Source: an uncultured Bifidobacteriaceae bacterium
GTDB lineage: Bacteria > Acidobacteriota > Vicinamibacteria > Vicinamibacterales > UBA2999
Direction of reading: 5' to 3'
DNA length: 64,000 nucleotides
NCBI GenBank assembly: GCA_964619705.1
Contig: CAZUGF010000001.1
Location: forward strand, 225,327-289,326
Each line of letters opens with the position of its first letter. Within the stretch, counting starts at the first letter, position 1. The translations under genes and the position numbers were made by a program. The notes beneath the pieces were generated by a model that was not told the origin of the DNA, did not search any database, and saw only the letters and a list, made by a program, of their open reading frames with translations. This document shows, one piece after another, positions 21,742 to 32,290 of this stretch.

Positions 21742-22941
21742 GTGATCGTCCTCGCCGGCGCCGACGTGGTCCTGCCCGATGGCGTGCTCCATGGGGGATC
21801 GGTGCTCGTGGAAGACGGGCGCATCGTGGACATCACGGAGCAGGCCGTCGACGGGCCCGCCGCGGCCACGCGCCTGGCACTCCCGGGCCACACGATCGTC
21901 CCCGGCTTCATCGACGTGCACGTGCACGGCGTGAACGGCGTGGATGTGCTCGACGGCCCCGATGCGCTCGCCGACGTCGCGCGCGTCCTGCCGCGCTACG
22001 GCGTCACGGCGTTCTGTCCCACGTCGGTGGCCTGTACGCCGATGGCGCTCCGCGTCCTGCTCGACGCCGTCCGCCGGGCCGCCCGCCACCGCGCGCCGGG
22101 ATCGGCGCGCGTGCTGCCCGCGCACCTCGAGAGCAACTTCATCAACCCTGCGTGGACGGGCGCGCAGCCCGTGGAGTGCCTGCGCGAGTACGACGGACGA
22201 ACCGGCGACACGGGCCCGGATGGGGCCGGCGGGTTCACCGGCGACGACATCCTCCGCACCATCGGGGCCAGCCGCCCCGAAGTCGGCATCGTGACGCTGG
22301 CGCCGGAGATGAGCGGCGGCCTCGATCTCGTCCGCGCCCTGCGCGACGCGGGCCACGTGGTCTCCATCGGCCACAGCGGGGCCAGCTACGGTGACACCCG
22401 CGCGGCCATCGCCGCCGGTGTTACCCACGCGACGCACCTGTTCAACCGGATGTCGCCCTTCGCGCATCGTGAGCCGGGTGTCGTAGGCGCGGTGCTCGAG
22501 TCCGCGGACGTCGCCGCCGAGCTCATCTGCGACGGGTACCACGTGCACCCGGCCGTCGTTGCGCTCGCGTGCGCCGTCAAAGGGGTGGACCGCGTGATGG
22601 CCATCACCGATGGCACGGCCGGATCGGGACTCTCCGTCGGATCGCGAACGCGGCTCGGCGGCCGCCCGATTGTCGTCGGCGCGCACGCCGCGCACCTCGA
22701 CGATGGGACGCTGGCGGGAAGCGTGCTGACCATGGATGGCGCCTTCCGGATGCTCGTGCGCAGCGCATCCGTCTCCGTCGTGCACGCCGCGCGCCTGTGC
22801 GCCACGACGCCGGCGGCGCAGTTGGGCCTGACGGGGCTCGGCCGCGTCGAGGTGGGAGCCAGCGCGGACCTCACGGTGCTCGACGAGGCCTTCGAGGTCG
22901 TGCAGACGTTCATTGACGGCGTGCCGGTGCTGGAACCATGA
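21742..22941 (+). CDS. nagA: N-acetylglucosamine-6-phosphate deacetylase
   Basis: GTG start. Amidohydrolase metal motif PGFIDVHVHG, plus SIGHSGASY and THLFNRM segments typical of NagA. Confidence 0.85.
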   Translation: MIVLAGADVVLPDGVLHGGSVLVEDGRIVDITEQAVDGPAAATRLALPGHTIVPGFIDVHVHGVNGVDVLDGPDALADVARVLPRYGVTAFCPTSVACTPMALRVLLDAVRRAARHRAPGSARVLPAHLESNFINPAWTGAQPVECLREYDGRTGDTGPDGAGGFTGDDILRTIGASRPEVGIVTLAPEMSGGLDLVRALRDAGHVVSIGHSGASYGDTRAAIAAGVTHATHLFNRMSPFAHREPGVVGAVLESADVAAELICDGYHVHPAVVALACAVKGVDRVMAITDGTAGSGLSVGSRTRLGGRPIVVGAHAAHLDDGTLAGSVLTMDGAFRMLVRSASVSVVHAARLCATTPAAQLGLTGLGRVEVGASADLTVLDEAFEVVQTFIDGVPVLEP

Positions 22942-22978
22942 CGCCGGACCGTCCGTCTACTCTCGCCAGGGGCACATC

Positions 22979-23905
22979 ATGACCCGGACCATCAGCGGAA
23001 CCCTCTTGCGCGTCTCGACGGCCGCGGCCGTCGCGGCGACGCTCGGCGCGTGCGAAGTCAACCTCGGCACGGAGGGTCTGACCGCCCGCGAGAAGCGCAC
23101 GTTCCAGGTCAGCGGCCAGCCCGACGTCACACTCGAGACGTTTGACGGCTCCATCGAGATTCACTCCTGGGATCGGGACGAAGTCGAGGTGGAGGTCGAG
23201 AAGCGCGGCATGGAGCAGTCCGTGCTCGATCAGATCACCATCGAGGCCGAGCAACAGGGCGACACGATCGTCCTGCGGGTGCTGGGGCCGACGAGAGCCG
23301 AATCGCGGGGCATGACGATCGGCATTCACATCGCCACGGCCGCGCGCCTCTACGTCGCCGTCCCGCGCCGCCTCCTGCTGCAGGCGCGCACGGGCGACGG
23401 ATCCATCCGCGCAGAGGATCTCGCCGGCCGCGTGGTCCTGGACACCGGCGACGGCAGCATCACCGTCGATCGCGTCTCCGGCGACATCGAGGCGCGAACC
23501 GGCGACGGGTCCATCCGCCTCGGCAACGTCGACGGCCGCCTGAACCTCGAGACCAACGACGGGCGCATCGAGGTGGATGGCAAGGTGGACCTGCTCCGCG
23601 CCCACACAGGGGACGGGTCCGTCCGCGTCCGCGTGGCATCGGGCGCCGCGATGGCCGGGGACTGGGACATCGAGACGGGTGATGGCAGCGTCACGCTGGT
23701 GCTGCCCTCCGCCTTCGATGCCGACCTGGACGCCGAGACCCGTGACGGGAGCGTCCAGCCCGCGCATCCGCTCATCGCCGAGTCCGCCTCGGACCGCGAT
23801 GGCGATCGCCCCGAGCGACGCCGCGCCCTGCGGGCCCGTATGGGCGCGGGCGGACACGTGCTGCGGATCCGCAGCGGTGACGGGTCGATCCGGATCGAAC
23901 CTTGA
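22979..23905 (+). CDS. Lipoprotein with DUF4097-like (putative adhesin) beta-repeats
   Basis: The ATG at 22979 gives a lipobox (AAAVAATLGAC). The body is a run of short repeats: TGDGSIRAED, TGDGSITVDR, TGDGSIRLGN, TNDGRIEVDG, TGDGSVRVRV, TGDGSVTLVL, SGDGSIRIEP. Confidence 0.7.
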   Translation: MTRTISGTLLRVSTAAAVAATLGACEVNLGTEGLTAREKRTFQVSGQPDVTLETFDGSIEIHSWDRDEVEVEVEKRGMEQSVLDQITIEAEQQGDTIVLRVLGPTRAESRGMTIGIHIATAARLYVAVPRRLLLQARTGDGSIRAEDLAGRVVLDTGDGSITVDRVSGDIEARTGDGSIRLGNVDGRLNLETNDGRIEVDGKVDLLRAHTGDGSVRVRVASGAAMAGDWDIETGDGSVTLVLPSAFDADLDAETRDGSVQPAHPLIAESASDRDGDRPERRRALRARMGAGGHVLRIRSGDGSIRIEP

Positions 23906-23926
23906 GCGCGCGCGCGGCCCGTTGAA

Positions 23927-24625
23927 TCAGCGCGGCGACGGATGCCGGTACGCCGTCGGGTCCGGCACGCTGGCGGCCGCGAACGCATCGCGCCGTTCGC
24001 GGCACTTGCTGCACCGCCCGCAGTGCACCGGCACCCCCGCGGCCCCGTCGTCGCCGTCCGTGCCCGTCATGCACGACATCGTCAACTCCAGGGGGACGCC
24101 GAGCCCGGCACCTCGCCTGATCACGTCCTCCTTGCGCCAGTCGGCGAAGGGCGTGGCGATCGTGACGCCGCGGTCGAGGCCGAGGGAGATCGCCTGCTGC
24201 ATGGCGGTAAAGAAGGCCGGCCGTGCGTCGGGGAACGGGTTGCCGGCCAGCGGCCCGAGCGCGATGCGGTCCGCACCGTGCGATGCGGCTACGATGCCCG
24301 CCTTGGCCAGCAGGACGAGGTTGCGCCCCGCGAGGTAGACGTCCTCGTCGGGCGTGTCGTACGCCGGCGGCACGCCGCGCACGGCCCAGTGGCCCGGGGG
24401 GTACACGTCGCGCATCGTGAACGCGACGCGTGCGAGCGGCAACACGCGGCTGGCGAAGACCGCGTGCTGCAGCAGCCGATCGAGCATGGCCAGCTCCCGG
24501 GCCTCCCACGCCAGCCCCACGCTCACGTGTACGGGAAGGACGCGCCCGTCCACGGCTTCGTGCGCGGCGAGCACGGCGCTGTCGAGGCCGCCGGACAGGA
24601 GCACAAGCGTCAATCGATCGCTCAT
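23927..24625 (-). CDS. queC: 7-cyano-7-deazaguanine synthase
   Basis: Homology begins at the ATG at 24625 with a PP-loop (LTLVLLSGGLDSAV). It has a C-terminal Zn Cys cluster (SCM...HCGRCSKCRER). Confidence 0.9.
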   Translation of the reverse strand: MSDRLTLVLLSGGLDSAVLAAHEAVDGRVLPVHVSVGLAWEARELAMLDRLLQHAVFASRVLPLARVAFTMRDVYPPGHWAVRGVPPAYDTPDEDVYLAGRNLVLLAKAGIVAASHGADRIALGPLAGNPFPDARPAFFTAMQQAISLGLDRGVTIATPFADWRKEDVIRRGAGLGVPLELTMSCMTGTDGDDGAAGVPVHCGRCSKCRERRDAFAAASVPDPTAYRHPSPR

Positions 24626-24652
24626 ACGGGCTATTCTCTCCCGAGGCCCCGC

Positions 24653-25327
24653 ATGCTGATTGTCTTCGACCTGGATGGCACCCTCATCGACTCCGTCCGC
24701 GATCTGGCGGAGTCCGCCTCGGAACTCGTGCAGGGCTACGGTGCGCCGCCGCTCTCCACCGACGCGGTCGCCGCGATGGTCGGCGACGGCGCACGCGTGC
24801 TCGTGCGCCGCGCGCTGGAGCAGTCCGGGCTGGACCCCGACGAGGCCGGCGCCCTGCCTCGCTTCCTCGAGATCTACGACCGGCGCCTGCTCGATCACAC
24901 GCGTGCGTATCCCGGCACCATCGAGGTGCTGGCCTCGCTCGTGGCCGCCGGCCCGATGGCGGTGCTCACGAACAAGCCGGTGGCGCCGTCCGAGGCCATC
25001 CTGGGTGCGCTGGGCCTGCGCGGGTTCTTCCACCAGGTGATCGGAGGCGATGGACCCTTTGCGCGCAAGCCGGATCCGGCCGGCCTCGGGTCCTTGATGG
25101 CGCGATGGCCCGGGCCGGCGCTGATGGTGGGGGATTCACCGGCGGACTACGAGACCGCACGTGCGGCCGGGTGTACCCCGGTCCTGGCGCGCTACGGGTT
25201 CGGGATCGCGAGGTTCGGCGGGACGCTGCCGGCAGACGCTGCCGTCATCGATCACGTCCGCGCGCTGCCGGCGATCGTGGAGACCATCACCTTGGACGCC
25301 GCCCGCATCCCGATCGTGATGCGCTGA
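24653..25327 (+). CDS. HAD-superfamily phosphatase (phosphoglycolate-phosphatase-like)
   Basis: The ATG at 24653 lies within a longer ORF. HAD motifs are present: IVFDLDGTLIDS, VLTNKP and MVGDSPADYE. Confidence 0.8.
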   Translation: MLIVFDLDGTLIDSVRDLAESASELVQGYGAPPLSTDAVAAMVGDGARVLVRRALEQSGLDPDEAGALPRFLEIYDRRLLDHTRAYPGTIEVLASLVAAGPMAVLTNKPVAPSEAILGALGLRGFFHQVIGGDGPFARKPDPAGLGSLMARWPGPALMVGDSPADYETARAAGCTPVLARYGFGIARFGGTLPADAAVIDHVRALPAIVETITLDAARIPIVMR

Positions 25328-25941
25328 CCCTCGCGCCCCTTCAGCTCCACGCTGTCCGACACGTCATCGCGCGCGCTGACTTCGATCGTCTCGCCCGGCT
25401 TCAGGTGGTGTCGCGCGATGAAGCGGAGGAACGCGGCATCCTGATCCGTCACCCGGCTCACGACGACCGGTTCGCGCAGGGGACAGTTGAGCAGCGAGAC
25501 GACATCCTTCTGCGGCACGCGCCCGTCGGCCGTCGGGATGGGATCGCCGTGAGGGTCCGCGTCGGGATAGCCCAGCATCTCGTCGATGCGCTCGATCAGC
25601 TTGTCCGACACGACGTGCTCGAGGTGCTCGGCATCGTCGTGGACCTCGTCCCACCGGAAGCCCATCACCTGAACGAGGAAGAGCTCGATGAGGCGATGGC
25701 GGCGAAGGACGAGCGCGGCGAGCTTCTCGCCCGCCGGGCTGAGGCGGACACCGATGTACGGCTCGTAGGCGACGAGCCCGGACTCGGCCAGGGCCTTGAC
25801 CATCGTCGTGGCCGTTCCGGGCGCGACGCTGAGCGCGGCCGCCAGCTGACCCATGGGGAGCATGCGCTGCCCCTCGGGCAACTGCGTCTCGCCCATGTAG
25901 ATGGCCTTGAGGTAATTCTCGACGGTGCTCGACGGAAGCAT
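25252..25941 (-). CDS. DtxR/IdeR/MntR-family metal-dependent repressor with C-terminal SH3/FeoA-like domain
   Basis: 229 aa with the N-terminus VENYLKAIY. It has a wHTH (MGQLAAALSVAPGTATTMVKAL), a metal/dimerisation region (RRHRLIELFL...VHDDAEHLEHVVS...DPHGDPIP) and an SH3-like tail. Confidence 0.85.
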   Translation of the reverse strand: MLPSSTVENYLKAIYMGETQLPEGQRMLPMGQLAAALSVAPGTATTMVKALAESGLVAYEPYIGVRLSPAGEKLAALVLRRHRLIELFLVQVMGFRWDEVHDDAEHLEHVVSDKLIERIDEMLGYPDADPHGDPIPTADGRVPQKDVVSLLNCPLREPVVVSRVTDQDAAFLRFIARHHLKPGETIEVSARDDVSDSVELKGREGQRITIGMRAASKVMVSTIAGSART

Positions 25942-25983
25942 CGTGTTATCAGAAGTTTACCAGAATCCACGCTCGCGGCCCGG

Positions 25984-26026
25984 TTGACTTTTTGCCAGAT
26001 AGTGTTGTTTAATTTTGTGTAGTCAA
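25984..26026. promoter_or_regulatory. Divergent promoter/operator candidate between the dtxR-like gene and the feo operon
   Basis: TTGACT (25984-25989) and AGTCAA (26021-26026) form an inverted pair. TTGACT-18 nt-TTTAAT (26008-26013) reads as a sigma70-type promoter for the + strand. This is the only AT-rich stretch locally. Confidence 0.4.
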
Positions 26027-26060
26027 AATCAACTCGGGCCACCGGCTCGGGTCAGCGTCC

Positions 26061-27071
26061 ATGAGCAGCGTCATCTGGGTTCTCCTCGGAATCGGCCTCA
26101 TTGCCGTGTTGCTCGCCCCCGGATACGGTCTGGCGGCGCTTGCCGGCGAGTTCCGGCGCAGGCAGGCCCGCGAGCGGGCCGAGAATGCCCTCAAGCACCT
26201 CATCGGCCAGGCCTCCGCCGGCCGTGCCGCGTCGCTCGGATCACTCCAGGGCGCACTCCATCTCGGCGATCGCGCGCTCCTGGCCCTGACGGGGAAGCTG
26301 GAGCGCGACGGCCTCGTCAGCGCGGAGGGATCCGACCTGCGGCTCACCGTGGACGGGGAGCGGGCGGCGCTTCACGTGCTTCGCGCGCATCGCCTTTGGG
26401 AGCTCTACCTGGCCGACGAGATCGGCGTGCCGCTGCCGCGTGTGCACCGCGAGGCCGAGCGCGCGGAGCACACGCTCAGTTCCGAGGCGCTCAACCGGTT
26501 GTCGGCGGCGATGGGGCACCCGGATGTCGACCCCCACGGCGACCCGATTCCCGGACCCGACGGCACGCTCGCGGCGCCGCCCGGAACGCCCCTCACGGCC
26601 TGGCCGGTGGCGGTGCCCGGCCGGATCGTGCACCTGGAGGATGAGCCGCCGCTTGCCTACGCGCAGTTGACCGCGGAGGGCCTGCACCTCGGCCAGGTGC
26701 TGCACGTCATCGATCGATCGCCGGCGCGTCTCGTGCTCAGCGATGGCGAGAGCGAGTACGTGCTCGCCCCGATGCTTGCCGGCAATGTGCACGTCGCGGC
26801 GATGGCCGGGCCCGCGGTGCGCGGGGCGGACGTCGTCCGTCTCACGGATCTCCCGACCGGCACGCGCGGCGAGATCGTGGCGCTCGAGCCCGGCTGCCGC
26901 GGCTTCACGCGCCGCCGCCTCCTGGATCTGGGCTTCACGCCGGGCGCCCGTATCCGGCACGACCTGACGACGTTCGCGGGCGATCCGCGGGCGTACCGGC
27001 TGCGGGGCACGACGATTGCCCTCCGCCGGGATCAGTCGGACCGCGTGCTCGTCAGGGCCGTGGGGCAGTAG
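26061..27071 (+). CDS. N-terminal hydrophobic helix + DtxR-like module + FeoA domain fusion protein
   Basis: There is an N-terminal hydrophobic helix (VIWVLLGIGLIAVLLAPGYGLAALAG). A DtxR-like core follows (LRAHRLWELYL...VHREAERAEHTLS...HPDVDPHGDPIP), then an SH3-like domain. A terminal FeoA domain follows (VRLTDLPTGTRGEIVALE...RRLLDLGFTPGARI...IALRRDQSDRVLV). It lies directly upstream of feoB. Confidence 0.75.
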   Translation: MSSVIWVLLGIGLIAVLLAPGYGLAALAGEFRRRQARERAENALKHLIGQASAGRAASLGSLQGALHLGDRALLALTGKLERDGLVSAEGSDLRLTVDGERAALHVLRAHRLWELYLADEIGVPLPRVHREAERAEHTLSSEALNRLSAAMGHPDVDPHGDPIPGPDGTLAAPPGTPLTAWPVAVPGRIVHLEDEPPLAYAQLTAEGLHLGQVLHVIDRSPARLVLSDGESEYVLAPMLAGNVHVAAMAGPAVRGADVVRLTDLPTGTRGEIVALEPGCRGFTRRRLLDLGFTPGARIRHDLTTFAGDPRAYRLRGTTIALRRDQSDRVLVRAVGQ

Positions 27072-27090: not shown

Positions 27091-27909
27091 ATGAACGTGC
27101 ACACGAACTGCGACACCTGCCCGGCACATGCCGAGATGGCACGGCTCGGACTGGCCGTCGACGGATTCGATCGGGTGGTGGCGCTTGCCGGGAACCCCAA
27201 CACCGGCAAGTCCACGCTCTTCAACGCGCTGACAGGGCTGCGCCAGCACACCGGGAACTGGCCGGGCAAGACCGTCACGCGTGCCGAAGGCGCCTTTCGG
27301 CTCGGCGGTGTCCGCTACAAGCTCGTGGACCTGCCCGGGACCTACTCGCTGCTGTCGGCGTCGCAGGACGAGGAGGTGGCGCGGAACTTCCTCCTGTTCG
27401 GCCGGCCGGACTGCACCGTGGTCATCGTCGATGCCAGCGCGCTCGAGCGCAACCTGTACCTGGTGCTGCAGGTGCTCGAGATCACGGACCGCGCCGTCGT
27501 GGCGGTCAACCTGATGGATGAGGCCCGGCGGCGCGGGCTCGACGTCGACACGCGGAGCCTGTCGCGGGATCTCGGTGTCCCCGTCGTGCCGATCGTGGCG
27601 CGGACGAGCGAGAACGTGATGGCGCTGCTGACCGAGATCGCGGGCGTCGCCTCCGGCGAGACGGTGACGAAACCGCTGCGCCCGCGCGGGACGCCGGAGT
27701 TCGAGCGGGCCGTCAACCGGCTGGTGCCGCTGATCGAGTCCGCGGCGCCCGGCGTGCCGAACGCGCGTTGGATTGCGATCAGGCTGCTCGACGGCGACGC
27801 GGCCGTCGAGGATGCGCTCGCCAGCGGGGCGCTCGCGGAGCTGGTGGCGAGGCAGCAGGCGCCCGACGCGCGCTTCAGCCGGAAGATCGCCCTGCAGGGA
27901 GCCCAATGA
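27091..27909 (+). CDS. feoB: Ferrous iron transporter FeoB, N-terminal G-domain/helical part (separate ORF)
   Basis: An RBS (aggaga) precedes the ATG at 27091. G1 motif GNPNTGKST, G3 motif DLPG and G4 motif NLMD are present. It ends at a TGA that overlaps the next ATG (ATGA at 27906-27909). Confidence 0.85.
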   Translation: MNVHTNCDTCPAHAEMARLGLAVDGFDRVVALAGNPNTGKSTLFNALTGLRQHTGNWPGKTVTRAEGAFRLGGVRYKLVDLPGTYSLLSASQDEEVARNFLLFGRPDCTVVIVDASALERNLYLVLQVLEITDRAVVAVNLMDEARRRGLDVDTRSLSRDLGVPVVPIVARTSENVMALLTEIAGVASGETVTKPLRPRGTPEFERAVNRLVPLIESAAPGVPNARWIAIRLLDGDAAVEDALASGALAELVARQQAPDARFSRKIALQGAQ

Positions 27910-29309
27910 GCGAGCCCGCCACCGCGTCGCCGGCGGACATCGTCCGCGAGGCGGCGGTCCTGCGCCGGTCGCTCGAGGCCGGTTTCCGGGAGGAGGTGGT
28001 CACCTCCCTGTACCGCGAAGTGGAGCGCATCACCGGGCGGGCCGTCCACGACGCCGGAGAACGGCGTCTGGAACTCGATCAGCGGATCGATCGCATCGTC
28101 ACGTCGCGCGTGTTCGGGCTGCCGCTCATGCTGGGCATCCTGGCCGTCGTGTTCTGGCTGACGATCGTCGGGGCCAACGTGCCGTCGCAGATGCTCGCCT
28201 CCGCGCTCTTCCGCGTCGAGGACCTGGGGGCGGCCCTGTTCGACGGCGTCGGCCTGCCCTGGTGGGTGACCGGCTTCGTCTGGCACGGTGTCTTCCGCGG
28301 CCTCGCGTGGGTCGTGAGCGTGATGCTGCCGCCGATGGCGATCTTCTTCCCGCTCTTCACGATGCTCGAGGATCTCGGCTACCTGCCGCGCGTGGCATTC
28401 AACCTCGACTTCCTCTTCAAGAACGCGGGCGCGCACGGCAAGCAGGCCCTGACGATGGCGATGGGCTTCGGGTGCAATGCGGCGGGCGTCATTGCCACGC
28501 GCGTCATCGACTCGCCGCGGGAGCGGCTCGTCGCCATCCTGACGAACAACTTCGTGCCCTGCAACGGGCGCTTTCCGACCCTGATCATGCTGTCGACGGT
28601 CTTTGTCGCCGCGTCGTTCCAGCCGGCGGTGGCTTCGTTGGTGGCCGCCGGGTCCGTGCTCGCGATCGTCCTGCTGGGCGTGCTGTTCACGCTCGCCGTG
28701 TCCTGGGCCTTGTCGCGGACGATTCTCAAGGGTGAGGCCTCCGTGTTCACGCTCGAGCTGCCGCCCTACAGGCGGCCCGGCGTGATGCGCATCCTCTACA
28801 CGTCGCTGATCGACCGCACGCTCTTCGTGCTGTGGCGGGCCGTCCTCACCGCGGCGCCGGCCGGGGCCGTCATCTGGCTCCTCGGCAACATCGAGGTGTC
28901 GGGCGTCAACCTCGCGCGGCACGCGGCCAACGCCCTGGAGCCCATGGGCTGGGCGATGGGGCTCGACGGCGTCATCCTGCTCGCCTACATCATCGCGATC
29001 CCGGCCAACGAGATCGTGGTCCCGACCATGCTGATGGTGTACATGGCCGAGGGGATGATGACGGACCTGACGTCGTTCGACCAGTTGCGCACGCTCCTGG
29101 TCGACCAGCACGGTTGGACGCTGCTGACCGCTGTCAACCTGATGCTGTTCTCCCTCCTGCACAATCCCTGTGCGACGACCATCCTGACCATCTACAAGGA
29201 AACGCTGAGTGCCAGATGGGCGGCCATCGGCGCGCTGATGCCGCTCGTGCTGGGGATTATCGTCACGATGGCCACGGCCGCGGTGGCGCGGGCGCTGTTC
29301 GGCGCGTGA
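27906..29309 (+). CDS. feoB: Ferrous iron transporter FeoB, membrane (gate-motif) part (separate ORF)
   Basis: The ATG at 27906 is in another frame. The product is polytopic (FGLPLMLGILAVVFWLTIVGANVP...) and colinear with the C-terminal two thirds of FeoB. Confidence 0.85.
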   Translation: MSEPATASPADIVREAAVLRRSLEAGFREEVVTSLYREVERITGRAVHDAGERRLELDQRIDRIVTSRVFGLPLMLGILAVVFWLTIVGANVPSQMLASALFRVEDLGAALFDGVGLPWWVTGFVWHGVFRGLAWVVSVMLPPMAIFFPLFTMLEDLGYLPRVAFNLDFLFKNAGAHGKQALTMAMGFGCNAAGVIATRVIDSPRERLVAILTNNFVPCNGRFPTLIMLSTVFVAASFQPAVASLVAAGSVLAIVLLGVLFTLAVSWALSRTILKGEASVFTLELPPYRRPGVMRILYTSLIDRTLFVLWRAVLTAAPAGAVIWLLGNIEVSGVNLARHAANALEPMGWAMGLDGVILLAYIIAIPANEIVVPTMLMVYMAEGMMTDLTSFDQLRTLLVDQHGWTLLTAVNLMLFSLLHNPCATTILTIYKETLSARWAAIGALMPLVLGIIVTMATAAVARALFGA

Positions 29310-29350
29310 TCGTCCGGGGCGGGGGACGCCCCATCGACGATAATCGCGGC

Positions 29351-30061
29351 GTGCGCCTCGGTGATGCTTTCGAGAGTCCGCAGTCCCGGCGCCTGTACGT
29401 GCGGCGCCTGTTCGGCACGATCGCGGATCGGTACGACCTCATCACGCGGCTGCTGTCGTTCGGGCAGGACAGCCGGTGGAAGGCGCGACTGGTGCGCGAA
29501 GCGCAGGTGTCCGCCTCGGACGTCGTCGTGGACCTGGCGTGCGGCACCGGGGACATCGCGCTGGCGTTTGCCGCGCTCGGCGCCCGGCGCATCATCGGGC
29601 TCGACATCGTGCCGCGCATGGTCGCGATTGCCGCGGCCAGGGGCGGGGACGTGTCCTACGTGATCGGAGACATGGGGACGCTCCCGCTCGGGCGGGCCAG
29701 CGTGGATCTCGTGACCACCGGCTACGGGCTGCGGAACGTGCCCGATCTCGACGAGGCGATCGACGAGATCGCGCGCGTGCTGCGTCCGGGCGGCCGGTTC
29801 GTCTCGCTGGACTTCAATCGGCCCGAGTCCGCACCGGTGCGGGCGCTCTTCCTGGCCTATCTCACCGCCGTCGGAGCCACCCTCGGCTGGCTGCTTCACA
29901 GGGATCCGGACACCTACCGCTACATCGCCGCCTCGATTCGGCGCTATCCCGGCGCGGCCGGTGTCGCGGGGCGTCTCACTGCGCGTGGATTCACGAAAGT
30001 GCGCACGATTCCCCTGCTGGGCGGCCTCATGACCCTCCACGTGGCCAGCCGGACGCCGTAG
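29351..30061 (+). CDS. ubiE: Demethylmenaquinone/ubiquinone C-methyltransferase (UbiE/MenG family)
   Basis: Start is the GTG at 29351, or the GTG at 29306 overlapping the feoB stop. Motifs: RRLFGTIADRYDLITRLLSFGQDSRWK, SAM motif VVDLACGTGD, and RVLRPGGRFVSLDF. Confidence 0.85.
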   Translation: MRLGDAFESPQSRRLYVRRLFGTIADRYDLITRLLSFGQDSRWKARLVREAQVSASDVVVDLACGTGDIALAFAALGARRIIGLDIVPRMVAIAAARGGDVSYVIGDMGTLPLGRASVDLVTTGYGLRNVPDLDEAIDEIARVLRPGGRFVSLDFNRPESAPVRALFLAYLTAVGATLGWLLHRDPDTYRYIAASIRRYPGAAGVAGRLTARGFTKVRTIPLLGGLMTLHVASRTP

Positions 30062-30217: not shown

Positions 30218-32290
30218 ATGGCCCTAGTCGATTCCCTGCTGACCGCGATGGTGCGCGCCGATGGCGACGCGCTCGTCATGCACGTGGGCGAAAGACCCTA
30301 CGTCGTGGCCCAGTCGAGAACCATTGACGTCTCGACCCACGGACTCAACCTGAGCGCGATGAACGGGATGCTGGCGCAGCTCCTGCCCGTCGATGCCAGG
30401 GCCGCCCTCGATGAGCTCGGCGCCGTCGAACAGACGCTCCCGTCGCGCGGATCGGACCGCTTCACCGTGGTCGCGGCCCGTGGCGGCGAGGACATCTGGA
30501 TCGAGATCCGCCGCCGCCGCGAGGCGCGGGCCGTCGACATTGTCGACGTGGAACCCGCGCCAGCGGCTCCACCGGCCGCCGAGACCTCCGAGGCCCCTGC
30601 GGCCACCGAGGCCGAGCCGGCTGCCGAGGCGGTCCCCGTGTCGAGTGCCGGGCCGGACGCCGATGCGGACGCCGGAACGAGCGCGGACGCGGCGGCTGAA
30701 CCGACGATCGAGCTGACTGACGACGCGCCCCCCGTCAGCGGTGCGCCGCTCGATACCGATACCGATGCTGACGCCGACTTCGACGCCGATGCCGGCGCTG
30801 CGCGGCACGAACCCGCTGAAGACACGCCGGCGATGAACGGCATGCCGGCCCTTGAGATTGACGCCCGGGCGGATTCCACCGCCGGCGCGCTGGAGGAAGA
30901 TACGATGGCGATCGACGAGTCCTCGTCTGCGGGTGAGCCGCAGGTGCCGGAGCCGGTGGCGGCTGAGCTGACCGCTGATCTGCAGGCGGTGGCTGGAGCC
31001 GCGGATGCGGTCACGGCCTCGAGCGGCGATGCCGCGGCGGCGTCGCCGCCCGCGCCCGCCATGGCGTCCGGAGCCGTGGGCGCTGCGCACGGCGATCCGC
31101 CGCAGACATCTCGTCCGTCCACCCACCAGGCCGATGTGCCGCCAGTGACGCGTCGCGTGCGCATCGAGGTGCCGCCGTCGAGAAGCGGCGCCCCGCGCGC
31201 GGCGGGCGCGGACCGCCTGCTCCGGGCGGCTGCCGCCCTGGGCGCGACCGAGCTCTTCGTGACGCCGCAGGCCGTGCCGTACGTGCGCGTGGATGGCGAC
31301 ATTCGCCCGCTCGACGGCGAGGCCGCGCTGACGGCCGGCGAGGTCGAGGCGGTCCTGCTGGAGCTGGCGCCCGAGACCCTGCGCGAACAGGCACGCCACG
31401 GCGAGTCGGGGGAGTGGCTGGCGGAGATGGCGGACATCGGCCGCGTGCGGTGCGCGAGCTTCCGCGACCAGCGCGGGGTCGGCCTGCTGTGCCGCCTGAC
31501 GTCCACGCGCGCCGCCTCGCTCGAACAGCTCGGACTCGGGCCGGAAGTGCAGGCGCTGGCGACCGAACCGGACGGCCTCGTTCTCGTGGCCGGCCGCGAG
31601 GGCAGCGGCAAGTCGTCCATCATCTCGGCGCTCGTCGATGCGATCAACCGCAGGCGCGCGGACTACGTCATCACGCTGGAGCCAGAGCTGCGGCTGCTCC
31701 ACGAGAACCGGCATGCCCTGATCAGTCAGCGCGAGGTGGCGGGCGGTGAAGCGCTGGTGGCTGCGGCCCGGGCGGCCCTTCGCGAGGCCCCCGACGTGCT
31801 CGTGATCGACGGCCTTGATTCCGCCGAGATGGTCGACCTCGTCCTCGGCGCCGCCGGACGCGGCCTCCTCGTCGTGGCCTCGGTGCCCGCGGCCTCGGCG
31901 ACCGACGCCGTGGCGCACATCGTCGGGCTCGTGCCGGACGATCGCCGGGCATCCGTGCAGGCGTCGCTGGCCGGGCTTTTCCGCGGGGCTGTCTCGCAGG
32001 TGCTGGTCCGCAAGGCGGCCGGCGGGCGCGTTGCCGCGCGGGAACTGCTGCTCGCCTCGGGCGACGTCACGCGCGTCATCGCGAGCGGGTCCTTCGTCGA
32101 ACTGCCGGGCGCGCTCGACGCCGGGCGCCGGTACGGGATGACGTCGCTCACCGCCACGCTCGTCGAGCAGGTGCAGGGCGGCGTGGTGGATGTGCGGGAG
32201 GCCTGGCGCAAGGCGCCGAATCGCGACACGCTGGTTGCCGGCCTCAAGGCCGCCGCCGTGGACACCTCGCTGATCGATCGGCTCGCGTAG
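30218..32290 (+). CDS. PilT-like secretion-ATPase-family protein with duplicated N-domain, long acidic linker and degenerate catalytic motifs
   Basis: 690 aa. Residues 1-100 and ~335-440 both read like the PilT N-domain. Residues ~105-330 are low complexity, rich in Ala/Asp/Pro/Glu. The C-terminal core is colinear with PilT (GLVLVAGREGSGKSS...ALREAPDVLVIDGLDS...GRVAARELLL). Confidence 0.75.
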   Translation: MALVDSLLTAMVRADGDALVMHVGERPYVVAQSRTIDVSTHGLNLSAMNGMLAQLLPVDARAALDELGAVEQTLPSRGSDRFTVVAARGGEDIWIEIRRRREARAVDIVDVEPAPAAPPAAETSEAPAATEAEPAAEAVPVSSAGPDADADAGTSADAAAEPTIELTDDAPPVSGAPLDTDTDADADFDADAGAARHEPAEDTPAMNGMPALEIDARADSTAGALEEDTMAIDESSSAGEPQVPEPVAAELTADLQAVAGAADAVTASSGDAAAASPPAPAMASGAVGAAHGDPPQTSRPSTHQADVPPVTRRVRIEVPPSRSGAPRAAGADRLLRAAAALGATELFVTPQAVPYVRVDGDIRPLDGEAALTAGEVEAVLLELAPETLREQARHGESGEWLAEMADIGRVRCASFRDQRGVGLLCRLTSTRAASLEQLGLGPEVQALATEPDGLVLVAGREGSGKSSIISALVDAINRRRADYVITLEPELRLLHENRHALISQREVAGGEALVAAARAALREAPDVLVIDGLDSAEMVDLVLGAAGRGLLVVASVPAASATDAVAHIVGLVPDDRRASVQASLAGLFRGAVSQVLVRKAAGGRVAARELLLASGDVTRVIASGSFVELPGALDAGRRYGMTSLTATLVEQVQGGVVDVREAWRKAPNRDTLVAGLKAAAVDTSLIDRLA

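Follow-up and report, generated by a model that had tools for sequence, protein, structure and literature searches.

A putatively membrane-anchored DtxR-like/FeoA fusion protein encoded directly ahead of feoB as a candidate metal-sensing subunit of a Feo-type importer

The gene at positions 26061..27071 (+ strand) of a 64,000-nt stretch of DNA (hereafter the window; contig CAZUGF010000001.1, deposited as an uncultured Bifidobacteriaceae bacterium and assigned by GTDB to the Vicinamibacterales of the Acidobacteriota) encodes a 336-aa protein that joins an N-terminal hydrophobic helix, a DtxR-like metal-binding body, and a FeoA domain in a single chain. Our favored reading, held with about even confidence, is that this fusion protein is a membrane-anchored FeoA subunit whose DtxR-like part senses metal and controls FeoB via FeoA, with transcription handled by a neighboring repressor. 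As such it would be an anchored member of the “twin-FeoA” branch of DtxR/MntR proteins typified by PgMntR, serving as the FeoA subunit of a Feo-type importer of divalent metals.

The start of the open reading frame (ORF) is the earliest start codon past the upstream stop, an ATG, and an independent public contig carries the identical 336-aa product with the same gene call and the same neighbors. An original prediction, made by a model from the letters of the window alone, had described four parts, i.e., a hydrophobic helix, a DtxR-like winged helix-turn-helix with metal-binding and dimerization region, an SH3-like domain, and FeoA, and all four were recovered with Pfam, NCBIfam, phmmer, and AlphaFold2 (AF2). 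Behind the helix, a DtxR-type winged helix-turn-helix with degenerate DNA-reading positions (26181..26345, aa 41-95, + strand like all parts of the fusion) is followed by the metal-binding and dimerization domain with a DPHGDPIP linker at its end (26346..26555, aa 96-165; Fe_dep_repr_C, PF02742, at aa 96-164, E 7.7e-25), by an SH3-like ancillary domain with the family-specific motif H191-x-E-D-E-P196 (26613..26810, aa 185-250), and by a genuine FeoA domain (26835..27056, aa 259-332; PF04023, E 1.2e-19, 70.6 bits against a cut-off of 23). The NCBIfam MntR profile covers aa 70-247 including the SH3-like domain, and a phmmer search of the PDB aligned aa 34-172 with the Mn sensor DR2539 of D. radiodurans including the entire winged helix (E 4.8e-26). 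Domain parsing with hidden Markov models (HMMs) thus supports the proposed DtxR-like core through PF02742 and the MntR profile, and the VHREAERAEH and DPHGDPIP segments of the fusion do align with VHDDAEHLEH and DPHGDPIP of the neighboring DtxR. An AF2 model for which 50 diverse homologues served as input has a mean predicted local distance difference test score (pLDDT) of 94.5 and a predicted TM-score (pTM) of 0.87. In Foldseek it superposes on three-domain DtxR/MntR/ScaR/IdeR structures at full length, with 5zr6, 1c0w, and 3hrs matching across ca. 215 residues at target-normalized TM-scores of 0.75-0.90 (5zr6: 0.86-0.90, root-mean-square deviation 2.0-2.4 Å).

The fusion protein therefore has the three-domain fold, the metal-binding and dimerization domain with primary and ancillary ligands, and the Pro-rich DPHGDPIP linker of canonical DtxR, IdeR, MntR, and DR2539, and it shares the Mn-type ligand set of the latter. 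Unlike these proteins, it adds the anchor, an extra FeoA domain, a juxtamembrane extension of helix alpha1, and the HxEDEP motif, and it does not match the DtxR DNA-binding profile PF01325. The last two domains, which together correspond to 26613-27056 (aa 185-332) of the window, are of opposite charge family-wide, with a mean net charge of -5 for the acidic SH3-like domain and +4 for the basic FeoA domain.

As to the C-terminal domain, its PDB matches include 7r7b, from the FeoA part of B. fragilis FeoAB, and the stand-alone FeoA structures 2k5f and 2k4y. FeoA is usually a free cytoplasmic protein of ca. 75 aa or fused to the N-terminus of FeoB as in B. fragilis FeoAB, whereas here it sits in a 336-aa anchored chain together with a sensor. 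Similar to FeoA and FeoAB (Sestok et al. 2022, PMC8980893), this bona fide domain, which scores above the Pfam gathering threshold, is encoded directly upstream of feoB: as had been stated from the letters, the fusion gene lies immediately ahead of feoB (itself two ORFs in the window), with its stop codon 20 nt upstream of the start of the first of these, which encodes the soluble FeoB part, NFeoB. All 66 related loci whose flanking DNA reached far enough, drawn from at least eight phyla, showed the same position. A search with an HMM of the C-terminal FeoA domain turned up no second FeoA-encoding ORF in the ±5 kb around the fusion gene at 73 of 74 loci, nor anywhere else in the 64-kb window. 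Since the fusion thus carries the sole FeoA domain found at the locus, we take it to be the FeoA component of this Feo variant. In Actinomycetospora chlora JCM 17979 (L071:5064-6065), a canonical-looking DtxR with LVRVDDGDP, not HxEDEP, is followed by a separate 102-aa FeoA ORF and a split feoB, an arrangement that may be the unfused state of this architecture or a frameshift.

The hydrophobic helix at the N-terminus (26064..26117, aa 2-19) has a mean Kyte-Doolittle value of 2.72 over a 17-mer, is conserved, and is predicted to be a transmembrane helix of N-out/C-in topology. It is followed by a conserved P-x-x-G kink (aa 20-23), after which a basic juxtamembrane helix (aa 24-40) merges into alpha1 of the winged helix (kink and juxtamembrane helix: 26118..26180); AF2 modeled a helix at residues 2-18, the kink at 19-23, and a single unbroken helix at 24-52 that joins alpha1. 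Close homologues align with the fusion from residue 1 over the hydrophobic stretch, the near-invariant P20 and G23, and the basic run, and W-P-x-x-G-L is seen repeatedly across phyla after the anchor helix. When the open frame upstream of the E-D-x-L-K motif was read in genome loci, a hydrophobic 17-mer (Kyte-Doolittle mean of at least 1.8) with a start codon ahead of it was present in 63 of 68, and a hydrophobic N-terminal helix was likewise found in 111 of 140 full-length cluster representatives and 106 of 120 close homologues. This conservation across loci and homologues rules out the worry attached to the original prediction that the hydrophobic N-terminus might stem from a wrongly called start.

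On average, the genome loci encode ca. 3 residues with 0.03 K/R before the helix and 5.8 K/R but 1.2 D/E in the 21 residues after it, which reads as the charge pattern of an N-out/C-in anchor and from which we infer that the fusion protein is inserted into the membrane. A cleaved signal peptide was considered and rejected, given that there is no basic n-region, that the basic cluster lies past the helix, and that the other domains are cytoplasmic in type. Among the close homologues, a set of database entries of 320-328 aa (P0007, P0032, P0033, P0046, P0048, P0052, P0059, P0062, P0067, and P0090) has no helix; here the gene caller probably took a downstream start codon and thereby hid the anchor in the annotation, and many of the exceptions to the helix are gene calls of this length.

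The one characterized relative is the DtxR-family regulator PgMntR (PG1044) of Porphyromonas gingivalis, which ends in twin FeoA domains and whose gene lies in one operon with that of the Mn transporter FeoB2 (Zhang et al. 2016, PMC4805248). The window fusion resembles it in its winged helix, metal-binding and dimerization domain, FeoA1/SH3 and FeoA2 domains, and feoB operon. The PgMntR alignment in S1 Fig of that study contains homologues from Melioribacter, Formosa, Cytophaga, Thermophagus, Roseiflexus, Anaerolinea, and others that have hydrophobic N-termini and share HHIEDEP and RRRLLDLG with PgMntR, and the homologues that the paper lists fall into the fusion family; read against this figure, the window fusion has VHLEDEPP and RRRLLDLG. 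The words “transmembrane” and “hydrophobic” occur nowhere in the paper (PMC4805248). However, PgMntR lacks the N-terminal hydrophobic helix, has Cys108 in its primary site where the window fusion has Glu133, and has been studied solely as a soluble DNA-binding repressor and not as a Feo subunit, and the window locus in turn adds a separate canonical DtxR and a split feoB. Based on the shared modules and motifs and the published list of homologues, we regard PgMntR as an anchor-less, atypical member of the fusion family.

We assessed conservation in an alignment of 74 fusion proteins with 37 canonical DtxRs encoded at their loci. The fusion-family equivalents of the primary metal site (D11, E102, E105, and H106 of DR2539) are D/N42, E133, E136, and H137, and those of the binuclear ancillary site (H79, E83, H98, D126, H128, D130, and D163 of DR2539) are H110, E114, H129, D157, H159, D161, and D194. 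Eleven of the twelve positions that we tracked are 94-100% conserved, the twelfth being E133 with Glu in 77%, and H110, E114, H129, E136, H137, D157, H159, D161, and D194 even reach 98-100%. The alpha1 residues that couple the metal site to the DNA-binding domain (E41, D/N42, L44, and K45) are invariant or nearly so. Both DtxR-like proteins of the locus have a Mn-type ligand set with Asp/Asn at the Met10 position and Glu at the Cys102 position. The H191-x-E-D-E-P196 motif of the fusion family (94-100% conserved) stands where canonical DtxRs have R-V-x-D-x-D.

Such an acidic, ligand-rich body might in principle sit where ions leave FeoB on the cytoplasmic side and work there as a metal acceptor or chaperone that takes the imported ion with its binuclear site and HxEDEP motif and passes it on, a role for which we know of no precedent and which we judge very improbable. 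It would agree with the gain of an invariant H-x-E-D-E-P by a domain of net charge ca. -5 and with an anchor that puts the protein at the membrane, and also with the metal binding of PgMntR, each monomer of which takes up three Mn or two Fe at very high affinity (PMC4805248). Yet the reported dissociation constants of 1e-10 to 1e-11 M are too tight for easy hand-off, and no gene for a partner or acceptor is conserved in the neighborhood.

While the dimerization domain shows similar pairwise identity in the fusion family and its canonical neighbors (55% vs 56%), the two differ in the surface that reads DNA. The information content of the recognition helix is 1.73 bits in the fusion family vs 2.83 bits in the canonical neighbors, that of the wing is 1.78 vs 2.65 bits, and the net charge of helix-turn-helix and wing is -0.7 vs +2.2. 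The canonical neighbors retain A-P-A-S-V-T-x-M-L-K-K-L and the wing Tyr, whereas the fusion family retains only the buried hydrophobic positions, and the equivalents of the DNA contacts Ala37, Pro38, and Tyr59 of DR2539 are not conserved. PF01325 did not match the window fusion at E ≤ 0.01 with the whole protein or at E ≤ 10 with aa 30-100, and it missed 42 of 50 family members. To judge from the alignment, the DNA-reading positions of the fusion family are thus apparently unconstrained, which suggests that DNA binding has been lost. In DtxR, residues 3-6 have been described to collide with DNA while helical, and they have to unwind for activation (PMC7762939). In the fusion, AF2 predicts alpha1 to be 13 residues longer at its N-terminal side and to lead into the membrane, so that this extended helix and the apposition to the membrane should, by the model, collide with DNA that is bound as in canonical DtxR.

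A number of points weigh against this reading. Membrane-tethered DNA-binding regulators exist, e.g., ToxR and CadC, in which a DNA-binding-type domain is likewise held at the inner membrane face via a single helix. There, however, the helix comes after the DNA-binding domain and leads to a periplasmic sensor, whereas the fusion has its helix at the extreme N-terminus with ca. 3 residues outside and no periplasmic domain, and the ToxR/CadC-type order of DNA-binding domain, transmembrane helix, and periplasmic sensor is not what we found. The remaining 8 of the 50 family members do match the DtxR DNA-binding HMM, and a poorly conserved recognition helix could reflect lineage-specific operators instead of lost function. 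Of 74 loci, 37 have a canonical DtxR next to the fusion gene, whether divergent from it, downstream, or upstream on the same strand, and the other half of the loci lack one there. Finally, PgMntR shifts its own promoter DNA in electrophoretic mobility shift assays at 700-1000 nM, also without metal (PMC4805248), so that the fusion family may still bind DNA.

The fusion could be a tethered transcription factor with two functions whose winged helix represses the feo promoter when loaded with metal and whose FeoA domain serves FeoB or stabilizes the regulator, an alternative that we hold to be unlikely. It gains from the binding of PgMntR to its own promoter fragment and from the loss of stability, Mn binding, and DNA binding upon removal of its second FeoA domain (PMC4805248), though the former is weak and metal-independent and PgMntR itself has no anchor. 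Part of the published gel shift could even be electrostatic, since the second FeoA domain has an isoelectric point of 11.4 and its deletion abolished DNA binding (PMC4805248). The entire winged-helix fold has been kept, with high model confidence, as have the coupling residues of alpha1, but the DNA-contact positions are unconstrained, the domain is acidic or neutral on average, most members escape PF01325, and the helical N-terminal extension at the membrane should stand in the way of canonically bound DNA.

A further argument for this alternative comes from the DNA directly upstream of the fusion gene, where a conserved palindrome is found, though a simpler candidate for its recognition is the canonical neighbor with its intact DNA-reading residues. 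This divergently transcribed protein of 229 aa (25252..25941, - strand), a canonical DtxR as the prediction had it, has all three Pfam domains of a DtxR/MntR-type repressor (Fe_dep_repress, Fe_dep_repr_C, and FeoA/SH3), and the recognition-helix motif A-P-G/A-T/S-x-T-x-M and the wing Tyr59 are conserved across the canonical DtxR neighbors. The palindrome, ATTTTG-N6-CAAAAT at 26012..26029, is a candidate operator that overlaps the -10 and transcription start region. Its arms are invariant in five aligned relatives (the copy of locus L083, ATTTTGATTAATCAAAAT, is perfect), no second copy occurs in the 64-kb window (0 expected in shuffles), and all 8 Vicinamibacteria-type loci, two without an adjacent dtxR (L014 and L063) among them, have it a short way ahead of the fusion gene. 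Overlap with the -10 and start region is the classical position of a repressor site, and the 229-aa canonical DtxR would be the protein that binds there.

The spacer of 119 nt between dtxR and the fusion gene does contain the elements that had been read from it, i.e., TTGACT (25984-25989), TTTAAT (26008-26013), and AGTCAA (26021-26026), but they fared differently. The candidate promoter TTGACT-18 nt-TTTAAT (25984..26013, + strand) is backed by conservation: TTGAC and TnTAAT at 18-nt spacing are kept in five aligned Vicinamibacteria-type spacers. A scan of 25800-26200 for consensus promoters and terminators called nothing, and it missed the candidate because position 2 of the -10 element is not A. 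The symmetry of the TTGACT/AGTCAA hexamers, by contrast, is coincidental and not conserved. Three perfect 6-nt inverted pairs occur in 141 nt where by rough estimate 2-3 are expected by chance, and AGTCAA, which is part of the right arm of the palindrome, reads AATCAA in relatives. A search of 25700-26300 for RNA elements in Rfam gave no riboswitch and one spurious miRNA match far below threshold.

Returning to the fusion protein as a sensor subunit that controls FeoB, we propose that its N-out/C-in helix and basic interfacial helix hold the DtxR-like body at the inner membrane face, where the complete primary and binuclear ancillary sites would bind metal and report the cytoplasmic level of Mn2+ or Fe2+. 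Because the DNA-reading positions appear unconstrained, we infer that the metal-driven conformational change acts on the attached FeoA domain instead of DNA. Altered engagement of FeoA with NFeoB would then provide a fast feedback control of uptake, and transcription of the operon would be left to the adjacent canonical DtxR/MntR repressor at ATTTTG-N6-CAAAAT over the promoter. The post-translational coupling to FeoB that the original prediction had suggested is consistent with the sole FeoA domain, the invariant ligands, the relaxed DNA reading, and a separate repressor with its operator, all of which are indirect lines of evidence. More tentatively, and with somewhat less than even confidence, the DtxR fold may have been repurposed in this large family from a DNA-binding repressor to an anchored allosteric metal sensor within a FeoA subunit, with cytoplasmic Mn2+ or Fe2+ switching an often split FeoB on or off without a detour via transcription. 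The prediction had also spoken of iron sensing, but the Mn-type ligand set and the precedent of PgMntR and FeoB2 favor Mn2+ no less than Fe2+ and make Mn2+ a serious candidate for both substrate and signal, so that the sensed metal may be Mn2+ rather than Fe2+.

The presumed partner is encoded by two ORFs with an ATGA stop/start overlap at 27906-27909: NFeoB, a protein of 272 aa in its own right that comprises the G-protein and helical domains (27091..27909, + strand; FeoB_N E 2.3e-60, FeoB_Cyto), and the 467-aa membrane part (27906..29309, + strand; Pfam Gate and FeoB_C, TIGR00437 positions 205-594). All domains of FeoB are thus present, on two ORFs instead of the usual single polypeptide. 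Fragments of FeoB with only the G domain have been viewed as possible sequencing errors (PMC8980893), but a frameshift could be rejected here in light of the ATGA overlap, the same split gene calls on an independent contig, and 44 split loci. Of 66 related loci, 44 from several phyla have a split feoB and 22 a single ORF, so that the split is a lineage feature and not a sequencing error.

A separate, soluble NFeoB would need recruitment, and the anchor and dimeric DtxR-like body could serve as a passive scaffold that tethers FeoA and free NFeoB near the FeoB permease, with metals in a structural and non-regulating role. We doubt this and consider it improbable, even though the FeoA domain of the fusion is the only one found at the locus and the ancillary site of DtxR-family proteins chiefly stabilizes the fold. 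The presence of the anchor did not correlate with the FeoB split in our loci (among anchored loci, 37 are split and 19 unsplit), and its equal presence with unsplit FeoB argues against a pure tether. Moreover, conservation extends beyond the structural site to the low-affinity primary site, which is the regulatory one, and to the alpha1 coupling residues, and ca. 230 sensor residues are unnecessary for a tether.

NFeoB itself has an N-terminal extension of ca. 25 aa ahead of G1 with the pattern C-x-x-C-P-x-H … L-x-K/R-L-G (aa 7-20, 27109-27150; C-x-x-C-P-x-H at aa 7-14, 27109-27132, + strand). It is conserved in 65 of 74 fusion-carrying loci, mostly absent in Gemmatimonadota with unsplit FeoB, and might serve to bind metal or as a docking peptide. 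An intermolecular metal site shared between this extension and the HxEDEP motif of the fusion was considered and discarded, as the CxxC extension and HxEDEP showed no covariation.

Other Feo systems offer a functional analogy. FeoC of Gammaproteobacteria is a winged-helix Feo protein that acts through FeoB and is not a classical repressor. It senses via a Cys-rich cluster site instead of a DtxR metal site, and none of 50 fusion-family members gave a FeoC match in Pfam. It has been proposed in the literature that systems without FeoC compensate via changes in FeoA and FeoB. Surveys of Feo systems have touched on the fusion family only in passing, with one from 2022 on Feo evolution remarking merely that “FeoA has an additional domain” in some cases and another removing FeoA fused to DtxR-type domains from its data (PMC8980893).

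Among 1.84 billion cluster representatives searched with HMMER, 331 clusters matched at E ≤ 1e-30, most of them with proteins of 330-360 aa that match end to end, and the family as a whole comprises several hundred clusters at 50% identity from at least eight phyla. The closest relatives are proteins from metagenome-assembled genomes of Vicinamibacterales/Acidobacteriota that are 64-76% identical and carry names such as “DtxR family Mn-dependent transcriptional regulator” or [quoted passage not shown]. In species-representative genomes, the fusion gene was found in Acidobacteriota, Chloroflexota, Bacteroidota, Ignavibacteriota, Gemmatimonadota, Verrucomicrobiota, Calditrichota, and Actinomycetota, including the cultured Maribacter polysiphoniae, M. 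caenipelagi, and Melioribacter roseus, to which S1 Fig of the PgMntR study adds Cytophaga, Capnocytophaga, and Roseiflexus as further cultured carriers (PMC4805248). The membrane-anchored fusion is therefore not rare and is a typical member of a large cross-phylum family. The notion of an unusual architecture thus needs qualification: it is common, and PgMntR without a transmembrane helix has already been characterized as a DNA-binding Mn regulator (PMC4805248), but the anchored form is new to the literature that we searched, in which neither a membrane-anchored DtxR-FeoA protein nor a split FeoB was found to be described. The same applies to the role as sole FeoA and to the relaxed DNA-reading surface.

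Around the locus, the 3′ end of a gene for a HAD hydrolase (+ strand, to 25327) overlaps the convergent 3′ end of dtxR (25252) by 76 nt, and this overlap is also called on related contigs. The flanks at 22913-25327 and 29300-30061 encode a DUF4097 “toastrack” protein, QueC, the HAD hydrolase, and a UbiE/COQ5 methyltransferase, which have no evident link to metal transport; their order is kept in related Vicinamibacteria-type contigs. Further downstream, 30218-32290 encodes a protein of 690 aa with a type II/IV secretion ATPase domain (T2SSE) at aa 435-600 and, by eye, a long low-complexity stretch rich in Ala, Asp, and Pro (aa 100-330) between its N-terminal region and the ATPase.

Two standing questions of the field are by what means FeoA acts on FeoB and how the activity of Feo systems is controlled post-translationally. 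For both, this family represents a natural construct of FeoA, sensor, and anchor that the Feo censuses published so far have excluded. It offers mutable handles in the ligand residues, the anchor, and the split NFeoB. Thousands of proteins that are named “DtxR family Mn-dependent transcriptional regulator” would probably be subunits of Feo systems, and the associated “ferrous iron” transporters may import manganese. If our reading is true, then the long-obscure role of FeoA would, at least here, be that of the regulatory input of FeoB.

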